Part shown: positions 20,239 to 20,343 of the stretch, one piece after another
Numbering within the stretch: the stretch's first letter is position 1
How the letters are laid out: every line of letters begins with the position of its first letter
DNA from: a virus
Lineage: Duplodnaviria > Heunggongvirae > Uroviricota > Caudoviricetes
IMG/VR virus record: IMGVR_UViG_2778261167_000005
Coordinates: 1 to 29,475 of that record
Reading direction: 5' to 3' (one strand)
DNA: 29,475 bases
Made by a program: the position numbers and the translations under genes
The notes under the pieces: generated by a model
Databases searched by the model: none
What the model was told of the DNA's origin: nothing
What the model saw: only the letters and a program-made list of their open reading frames with translations

Positions 20239-20343
20239 ATGAGCAAACCGGACTGGGACGAGCTACAGCAACGGTTCCTGTCAAATTGTCAAGATGTACT
20301 ACTAGTGCCAGAGCGAATCGGAGCGGTCATGCCAAAAAGTTAG
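20239..20343 (+). pseudogene. Truncated duplicate of the terS 5' end (34-aa remnant)
   Basis: ATGAGCAAaCCGGACTGGGAcG at 20239..20260 matches the terS start at 21289..21310 with 2 mismatches; the frame ends after 34 codons in unrelated sequence. Confidence 0.5.

Follow-up and report, generated by a model that had tools for sequence, protein, structure and literature searches.

A truncated start of a Klebsiella-type small terminase gene between the lysis and packaging genes of a lambdoid E. coli prophage

Upstream of the small terminase gene of a lambdoid E. coli prophage we found, by sequence comparison, the beginning of a second small terminase gene of a different type. Positions 20222-20282 read as the ribosome-binding site (RBS) and the first 15 codons of a Terminase_2/phrog_51-type small terminase of ~330 aa, the Klebsiella/enterobacterial prophage type (terS330 in the following). 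This stub is a pseudogene fragment, an ordinary product of phage genome mosaicism, and very probably a neutral, non-functional relic of an illegitimate joint, which was carried along by later homology-driven exchanges at short conserved elements. The DNA under study, hereafter the window, is the whole analysed stretch of 29,475 nt and encodes an integrase, RecT, a RecE-like exonuclease, a Q antiterminator, holin, lysozyme, Rz, terS, terL and a Phage_portal_3 portal. Between the end of Rz (19651) and the start of terS (21289) lies an interval of 1.64 kb that holds both the stub and the repeat described below and is AT-rich, with a GC content of 0.37-0.44 versus 0.50-0.59 on both sides. It contains, in this order, orf170, a 34-codon ORF, orf75, a terminator (20654-20683) and orf142. 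The features of this region are:

19690-20202, minus strand: orf170, a rare AT-rich gene (GC ~0.38) and the left flank of the stub; its cluster (90%) comprises 4 sequences.
20222-20238, plus strand: terS-type leader with RBS, TTTTAATAGGAAAGAAGC; blastn matches to 30 terS330-type loci start at 20222.
20239-20282, plus strand: coding remnant, codons 1-15, MSKPDWDELQQRFLS; 82-95% identity to annotated Klebsiella phage small terminase genes.
20239-20343, plus strand: the 34-codon ORF from the list of open reading frames, with codons 16-34 from unrelated DNA.
20283-20365, plus strand: spacer of 83 nt joined to the truncated terS, seen only in window-type loci and in locus L130.
20366-20649, plus strand: orf75 with its leader (coding part 20422-20649), matching phrog_18074 (function unknown) with E=1.3e-40.
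20654-20716, plus strand: conserved intrinsic terminator element, from a terminator scan and block ends; its hairpin (20657-20683) is the probable site of a recent crossover.
20737-21165, minus strand: orf142, AT-rich and divergent from terS, part of block B (see below); the exact protein is found beside a different terminase elsewhere.
21289-21891, plus strand: the resident intact small terminase gene (terS200; phrog_1206, E=7.6e-94), in which the repeat occurs a second time, over the first 22 nt.
21891-23363, plus strand: terL, the large terminase of 490 aa (phrog_2 and phrog_2472), partner of the resident terS.

The first-pass annotation of this DNA had noted that the start of terS recurs at 20239-20260, and the two copies, ATGAGCAAACCGGACTGGGACG upstream and ATGAGCAAGCCGGACTGGGAGG at 21289-21310, are indeed identical at 20 of 22 positions. 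They are direct repeats 1050 bp apart, with no second site in the window at ≤3 mismatches, and ungapped similarity extends over 34 nt at 79% (20225-20258 versus 21275-21308), AGGA ribosome-binding site included. Chance similarity as the source of the repeat was excluded, as none of 100 dinucleotide-preserving shuffles gave a match; by an arithmetic estimate ~7e-6 chance matches are expected for 59 kb on both strands. It had also been observed correctly that the upstream copy opens a frame of 34 codons (20239-20343, MSKPDWDELQQRFLSNCQDVLLVPERIGAVMPKS) and that this frame departs from the resident terS past nucleotide 22, the next 22 nt agreeing at 7 positions and the whole 44 nt at 27. The reading of the stub as a duplicate of the resident 5’ end did not hold: over the same 44 nt it matches the consensus of 95 intact terS330 genes at 39 positions, and single genes at up to 40. 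Likewise, the breakpoint assumed at 20260 had to be moved. Alignment with the resident terS and with related phages, the check suggested at the time, placed it at 20282/20283, where homology to terS330-type genes ends. What stands of the proposed recombination junction is a scar built of a terS 5’ end; where this end came from, where it breaks off and how much DNA had been acquired were misread.

In a sensitive blastn search of 19600-21300 against phage genomes, Klebsiella phage genes annotated as ‘terminase small subunit’ matched only at 20222-20282 (82%) or 20245-20282 (94.7%). The matched genes encode proteins of 330-331 aa with Terminase_2 at residues 75-270 and a phrog_51 match (E=2e-65), and a large terminase of ~435 aa follows 3’ of them. 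The terS330 proteins begin MAKPDWGELQQRFLSDHAATG; the stub reads MSKPDWDELQQRFLS and then diverges. A scan of viral contigs with the stub sequence, in which four positions were kept degenerate, yielded at least 120 loci, and ~100 ORFs among the matches listed are intact genes of 324-338 codons. When the window was compared with all loci by blastn, the terS330-type matches started at 20216-20245 and, in 124 of 124 cases among the matches listed, ended at 20282, i.e. abruptly within the gene as judged against its intact homologues. Past nucleotide 22 the stub tracks terS330 sequence for 22 nt more (22/23). The leader belongs to the same picture, TTTTAATAGGAA being identical to the consensus 5’ of the 95 intact terS330 genes, with flanks that are unconserved past approximately -12 to -17. 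With a GC content of 0.568 the stub forms an island between flanks of 0.376 and 0.406 and equals the phage core genes. Sequence match, breakpoint and GC content together argue for a truncated terS330 start and not for a copy of the resident gene.

Homology to the Terminase_2/phrog_51 family is found in the 5’ end, i.e. the RBS and the N-terminal codons. A functional gene of this family would be a full ORF of ~325-335 aa with helix-turn-helix and Terminase_2 regions and would be followed by its cognate large terminase of ~435 aa; the stub ORF has 34 codons, its homology stops after codon 15, and what follows are the spacer, orf75, orf142 and then a different terS/terL pair. The upstream copy was not found to be part of a conserved functional gene. 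The small terminases of Klebsiella phage 5 LV-2017 (ARB15733.1) and ST16-OXA48phi5.1 (QBQ71699.1), both PF03592/phrog_51, are alike in the RBS and codons 1-15 (MSKPDWDELQQRFLS versus MAKPDWGELQQRFLS, 39/44 nt) but differ from the stub in that it keeps 15 of ~330 codons and lacks the helix-turn-helix, Terminase_2 and the cognate large terminase. E. coli records list the 34-aa ORF as a hypothetical protein, and its cluster holds just 2 sequences. It does not seem to have been annotated as what it is, the beginning of a phrog_51-type terS within an E. coli prophage whose packaging gene is a phrog_1206-type terS.

The likeness between the stub and the resident terS can be traced to a short box at the gene start. 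The resident protein matches phrog_51, phrog_370 and phrog_2606 as well, over their N-terminal ~60 residues, which indicates that terS families have an N-terminal DNA-binding domain in common. All three terS types examined (terS330, terS200 with a related 216-aa form, and a 250-aa form in locus L137) open with M-[A/S]-K-P-D-W, or ATG-NNN-AAR-CCG-GAC-TGG at the nucleotide level, and the 22-mer is essentially this box. The match of stub and resident terS thus follows from the same box beginning all three types. Within its first 21 nt the stub agrees with the terS200 type at 19 positions (codon 2 AGC, codon 7 GAx) and with the terS330 consensus at 17. Codon 2 AGC occurs in no intact terS330-type gene of the samples, and the three differences of the window stub (codon 2 AGC, A20 and A27) occur in 0 of the 95 intact genes among the matches listed. 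As these 21 nt are nearer to the terS200 type, the extreme 5’ end of the stub may itself be chimeric; its terS200 flavour could be due to drift or to a past crossover inside the box.

Related prophages indicate that the stub is independent of the resident terS, and one of them carries it in a decayed form. An exact look-up of orf170 gave two kinds of contig, one identical to the window (L004) and one represented by L005-L008 (e.g. GCA_001055315.1). The latter correspond to window positions 19001-20695 with 98.3-98.6% identity over the lysis genes, orf170, an identical stub, orf75 and the terminator, and past the terminator they continue with orf72, a DUF1441 (Nu1-like) small terminase, a 700-aa GpA and a lambda-type portal; neither a second KPDW start nor terS200 was found in L005-L008. 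The first-pass view of a module inserted just upstream of terS is at odds with these Nu1/GpA-terminase prophages, in which the same stub is present. A diverged copy, L130 (89% over 20245-20679), shows the same 20282/3 joint, spacer and orf75, again with a Nu1/GpA terminase 3’, and has a left flank unlike that of the window, consisting of orf119 and a terS-type leader that resembles the one 5’ of the L137 terS. Because L130 and the window types share joint, spacer and orf75, a single truncation before these lineages split would account for both. Over the first 30 nt of the L130 stub 10 positions are mismatched, among them a change of TGG to TAG at codon 6, and the mutated bases are essentially invariant in intact terS330 genes; in contrast to the stub, orf75 is 91% identical between window and L130 at the amino-acid level. 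The stop and the 10/30 mismatches, found in this one diverged lineage, speak against purifying selection on the stub, and their position at otherwise invariant bases suggests that it is free of coding constraint. This decay, together with the presence of the stub beside Nu1/GpA and without terS200, points to the relic of an older event than the arrival of the present packaging module.

The same observations bear on a possible function of the 34-codon ORF, its RNA or its DNA, be it as a peptide, as a translated leader affecting orf75 expression or as a retained cis site, e.g. a pac element of terS330-type phages through which a helper phage could package this prophage, which we regard as highly improbable. 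In some pac phages (P22, SPP1) the pac site is located in or at terS, and such sites would be a precedent for the last variant. RBS, start codon and open frame are intact in all window-type copies, so that the 34-aa peptide might be translated, although copies of 98% identity are uninformative on selection. Public annotations do list the ORF as a gene, but the only known variant in its cluster is non-synonymous (G28E), and the stop codon and the mismatches at invariant bases in L130 are hard to reconcile with a conserved product. Moreover, 15 residues are too few for a helix-turn-helix domain, the stub ORF is set off from orf75 by two in-frame stops and 78 nt, and no Rfam match was obtained in 19000-22000 at E≤1.

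The DNA on both sides of the stub was traced separately. In none of the contexts examined for its exact sequence did orf170 occur without the stub cassette, and no genome was found in which it adjoins an intact terS330; a search of genome_contigs for loci related to orf170 confirmed no relative. On the other side of the joint, the spacer 21-mer GTCAAGATGTACTACTAGTGC is absent from genome_contigs and metagenome_contigs and occurs in viral_contigs only in two contigs already known. With blastn-short no other source of the spacer was detected in 1.2 Mb of related loci or in the window, which also rules out its derivation by an internal deletion of terS330. With regard to the parental arrangements, the terS330 type is abundant, and no donor of 20283-20365 was found in the viral, genome and metagenome collections searched. 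Loci L131-L140 match the orf75 region with 86% nucleotide identity from 20366 to 20687/20695; they have orf75 but no stub, which sets a boundary at 20365/20366. In five of them, L137 among these, a terS start follows ~59 nt past the orf75 homology, so that in L137 orf75 lies directly 5’ of an intact terS. We also observed orf75 in E. coli, Salmonella and Citrobacter prophages just 5’ of at least three small terminase types, the protein being conserved across contexts.

The exact orf142 protein is encoded in many Citrobacter, Enterobacter and E. coli genomes, divergent from and 5’ of a 216-aa small terminase gene (terS216) that is followed by terL523 and a DUF4055 portal. Within the collection, 497 blocks (Citrobacter, Enterobacter, Lelliottia and E. 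coli) contain its exact sequence, always divergent from and ~120 nt 5’ of a terS start, whichever large terminase comes next, and orf142 is a widespread uncharacterised companion of terS. Only the 142-aa version with an ATG start has been called as a gene; the records contain no 156-aa version with a TTG start. Searches against Pfam, PHROG and PADLOC gave no match for orf170 and orf142, and for orf75 only phrog_18074.

The interval turned out to be a patchwork of two blocks which are found apart elsewhere. Block A (lysis genes, orf170, stub and orf75) comprises at least 19001 to 20695 and is ~98% identical to its own relatives; block B (orf142 and terS) extends from 20656 to ~21495 and shows 98-100% identity to orf142-terS216 loci. 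After ~21495 the identity to the block B relatives is 63-87%, and homology stops at 21818. From the block ends at 20695 and 20656 it follows that A and B overlap in the terminator only, and in a three-way alignment the window changes partner inside the hairpin AAGCCGCCTACGGGCGGTTTTTTATTG. Read from these alignments, the hairpin (20657-20683) is the probable site of a recent crossover which joined the stub cassette to the packaging module that now follows it. The terminator element is 85-90% conserved in 58 complete E. coli genomes and in Enterobacter phages (CobraSix, ENT1, BHUENT3/6), always within the lysis-to-terminase interval; it measures ~60 nt and consists of the terminator hairpin and a second inverted repeat, TATTGCCAT...ATGGCAATA (20676-20715). 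A further boundary coincides with the terS start, as homology to the packaging modules of Klebsiella phages KO-TP1 and 2b LV-2017 and of E. coli XJ55 begins at 21288-21289; in the two Klebsiella phages the homologues of the 490-aa TerL are annotated as terminase large subunit. Another joint lies at ~21496 inside terS, after the N-terminal domain. Codons 1 to ~69 of terS200 are 98-100% identical to a 216-aa terS (L218 type) that has another large terminase as its partner, and identity in the C-terminal part is 63-87%; such a mosaic suggests domain-wise exchange within terS.

Several internal joints mean that 20261-21288, which had initially been taken as one acquired segment, is a patchwork and not a single acquisition. 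It is therefore very unlikely that a single foreign block, inserted or swapped in 5’ of terS with the 22-mers as its ends, duplicated the resident terS start. A direct repeat of 20/22, far above chance, codon 2 AGC and codon 7 GA of terS200 flavour in the stub, and the acquired-DNA-like AT-richness of the whole Rz-terS interval would fit such a duplication. The repeats, however, do not have a single source: for 22 nt more the upstream copy continues as terS330-type sequence and the downstream one as terS200. Nor is the DNA between them a contiguous unit, with joints at 20282/3, 20365/6 and 20657-20683, and L005-L008 carry the stub without any terS200. Neither an empty site nor a deletion between the two 22-mers was found in the 24 contigs examined that encode the exact terS200 protein. 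Target-site or terminal repeats of mobile elements are similar insofar as two short direct repeats surround AT-rich DNA; unlike those, the repeats described here are gene starts of two terS types around a composite interval, and one is found without the other in relatives.

For the stub as the relic of an illegitimate joint, the following course of events can be proposed. An ancestral prophage would have carried a terS330 gene downstream of its lysis cassette. Illegitimate recombination would then have fused codon 15 to the spacer (20283-20365), orf75 and a replacement packaging module, and the recombinant would have been viable because a full terS and terL came with the incoming DNA. The old gene start, now orphaned, would have been left behind, opening a 34-codon ORF into foreign DNA and drifting. 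Later, the left flank of the stub would have been exchanged homologously via short conserved elements, and a more recent crossover in the hairpin would have set the orf142-terS200-terL490 module behind the stub cassette. We infer the order of these events, and likewise the non-homologous nature of the 20282/3 joint, the latter from the abrupt loss of homology at a site for which one parent was found.

Experiments have shown that, where homology is short or diverged, mosaics form mainly through Rad52-like phage recombinases, among them RecT of Phi80 and of the Rac prophage (De Paepe et al. 2014, PMC3945230). The window encodes a RecET-type recombination module at 2876-6913 on the minus strand, with a RecT-family annealase of 363 aa and a RecE-like exonuclease VIII of 977 aa. 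RecT and the RecE-like exonuclease are plausible agents of the later exchanges. The traces of homologous recombination described by De Paepe et al. 2014 (PMC3945230) are alike in that the joint at 20657-20683 lies in a short element common to both parents, between two blocks of high identity, and that RecT and a RecE-like exonuclease are present. Different from these traces, the 20282/20283 joint has no detectable flanking homology; with none found and one parent only, it looks illegitimate and not homology-driven.

The start box itself was also considered as a site of exchange. Since the 95-gene set had been chosen by a pattern of the stub sequence and is biased for 5’-end conservation, a sample unbiased at the 5’ end was collected with the downstream anchor PKDWCEAQG (59 unique sequences, 0 of which match the first pattern). 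In this sample third-codon positions of codons 2-6 (A-K-P-D-W) are conserved at 0.88-1.0, compared with mostly 0.36-0.7 elsewhere. Synonymous conservation of codons 2-6 was noted in the terS330-type loci L148-L217 and L009-L128, with translation initiation, recombination or a cis site as candidate causes. Of all the features described, only this conservation and its coincidence with module boundaries are mildly unusual. The start box or stub might act as a portable homology patch through which RecET swaps cargo and packaging modules, making the stub a by-product and still a live substrate, but this is unlikely. Besides the synonymous conservation, several observations are in line with it: the left flank of the stub differs (orf170 in the window, orf119 and another terS-type leader in L130) while the right side is shared, the stub has a terS200-like head and a terS330-like tail, homology of the packaging module begins exactly at the terS ATG (21288-21289), and the prophage has RecT and RecE, recombinases of a kind that use short diverged homologies (PMC3945230). 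The exact runs, however, measure only 8 and 11 nt, selection on random joints predicts junctions at gene starts as well, conservation of codons 2-6 may reflect a translation-initiation constraint, and no recombinant with a crossover inside the box was directly identified. That the 18-19 nt of the box (ATG-GCA/AGC-AAR-CCG-GAC-TGG) constitute a dedicated cis element, either a linker for RecT/Red-type recombination or part of a packaging or translation signal, appears improbable as well. If the box were such a linker, orphan terS starts would be footprints of, and substrates for, the exchange of packaging modules.

Preferring the relic of an illegitimate joint, we find no essential difference between the stub and known gene remnants of lambdoid phages, in which homology is likewise lost abruptly inside a gene, the fragment is effectively non-coding and the flanking modules occur separately in other phages. 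In the Hendrix/Juhala model, illegitimate recombination followed by selection is said to leave gene remnants at novel joints in mosaic lambdoid phages. The lysis-to-terminase interval is known to accumulate extra genes, and extra transcription units between the late genes of lambdoid phages are termed morons. AT-rich genes on the opposite strand between Rz and terS (orf170, orf142) and a gene with its own terminator (orf75) resemble morons; the stub differs from them as debris of a core gene lying among moron-like genes. For annotation this means that gene counts should omit the 34-aa ‘hypothetical protein’ entered in E. coli records, which is a terS pseudogene fragment. The mosaic structure mapped here documents a packaging module probably exchanged through a terminator hairpin of ~27 nt in a RecET-encoding prophage. 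The small terminase genes of this group appear modular: one joint coincides with the start codon, and another follows the N-terminal DNA-binding domain. These results leave the present view of phage evolution unchanged.

Orphan terS330 starts of independent origin were also found at other loci, with lengths of ~22 codons in L043, ~23 in L084, ~48 in L015 and ~72 in L117. In L117 (5681-9126), a deleted prophage, the 72-codon stub adjoins a fragment of a tail-fibre chaperone (Peptidase_S74) and umuD/umuC-like genes, and the whole structural region appears to be deleted. L119 was considered as a further stub and set aside as more likely a frameshifted complete Terminase_2 terS. These remnants, and the arrangements of L029 and L085 described next, look as if related prophages had undergone unequal or illegitimate exchange within their lysis-terminase interval, and they would be viable because one complete terS/terL pair remains. 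In L029 (931-5120, minus strand) a terS330 stub of 75 codons is followed at once by Rz/Rz1 and small ORFs, with an intact 329-aa terS330 3.2 kb downstream, as if unequal exchange had duplicated part of the lysis-to-terS interval in tandem. The reverse of the window order is seen in L085, where a terS200-like gene (381-914; residues 1-178 of 200, 85%) lies 2 kb 5’ of an intact terS330 (2921-3823) and its large terminase.
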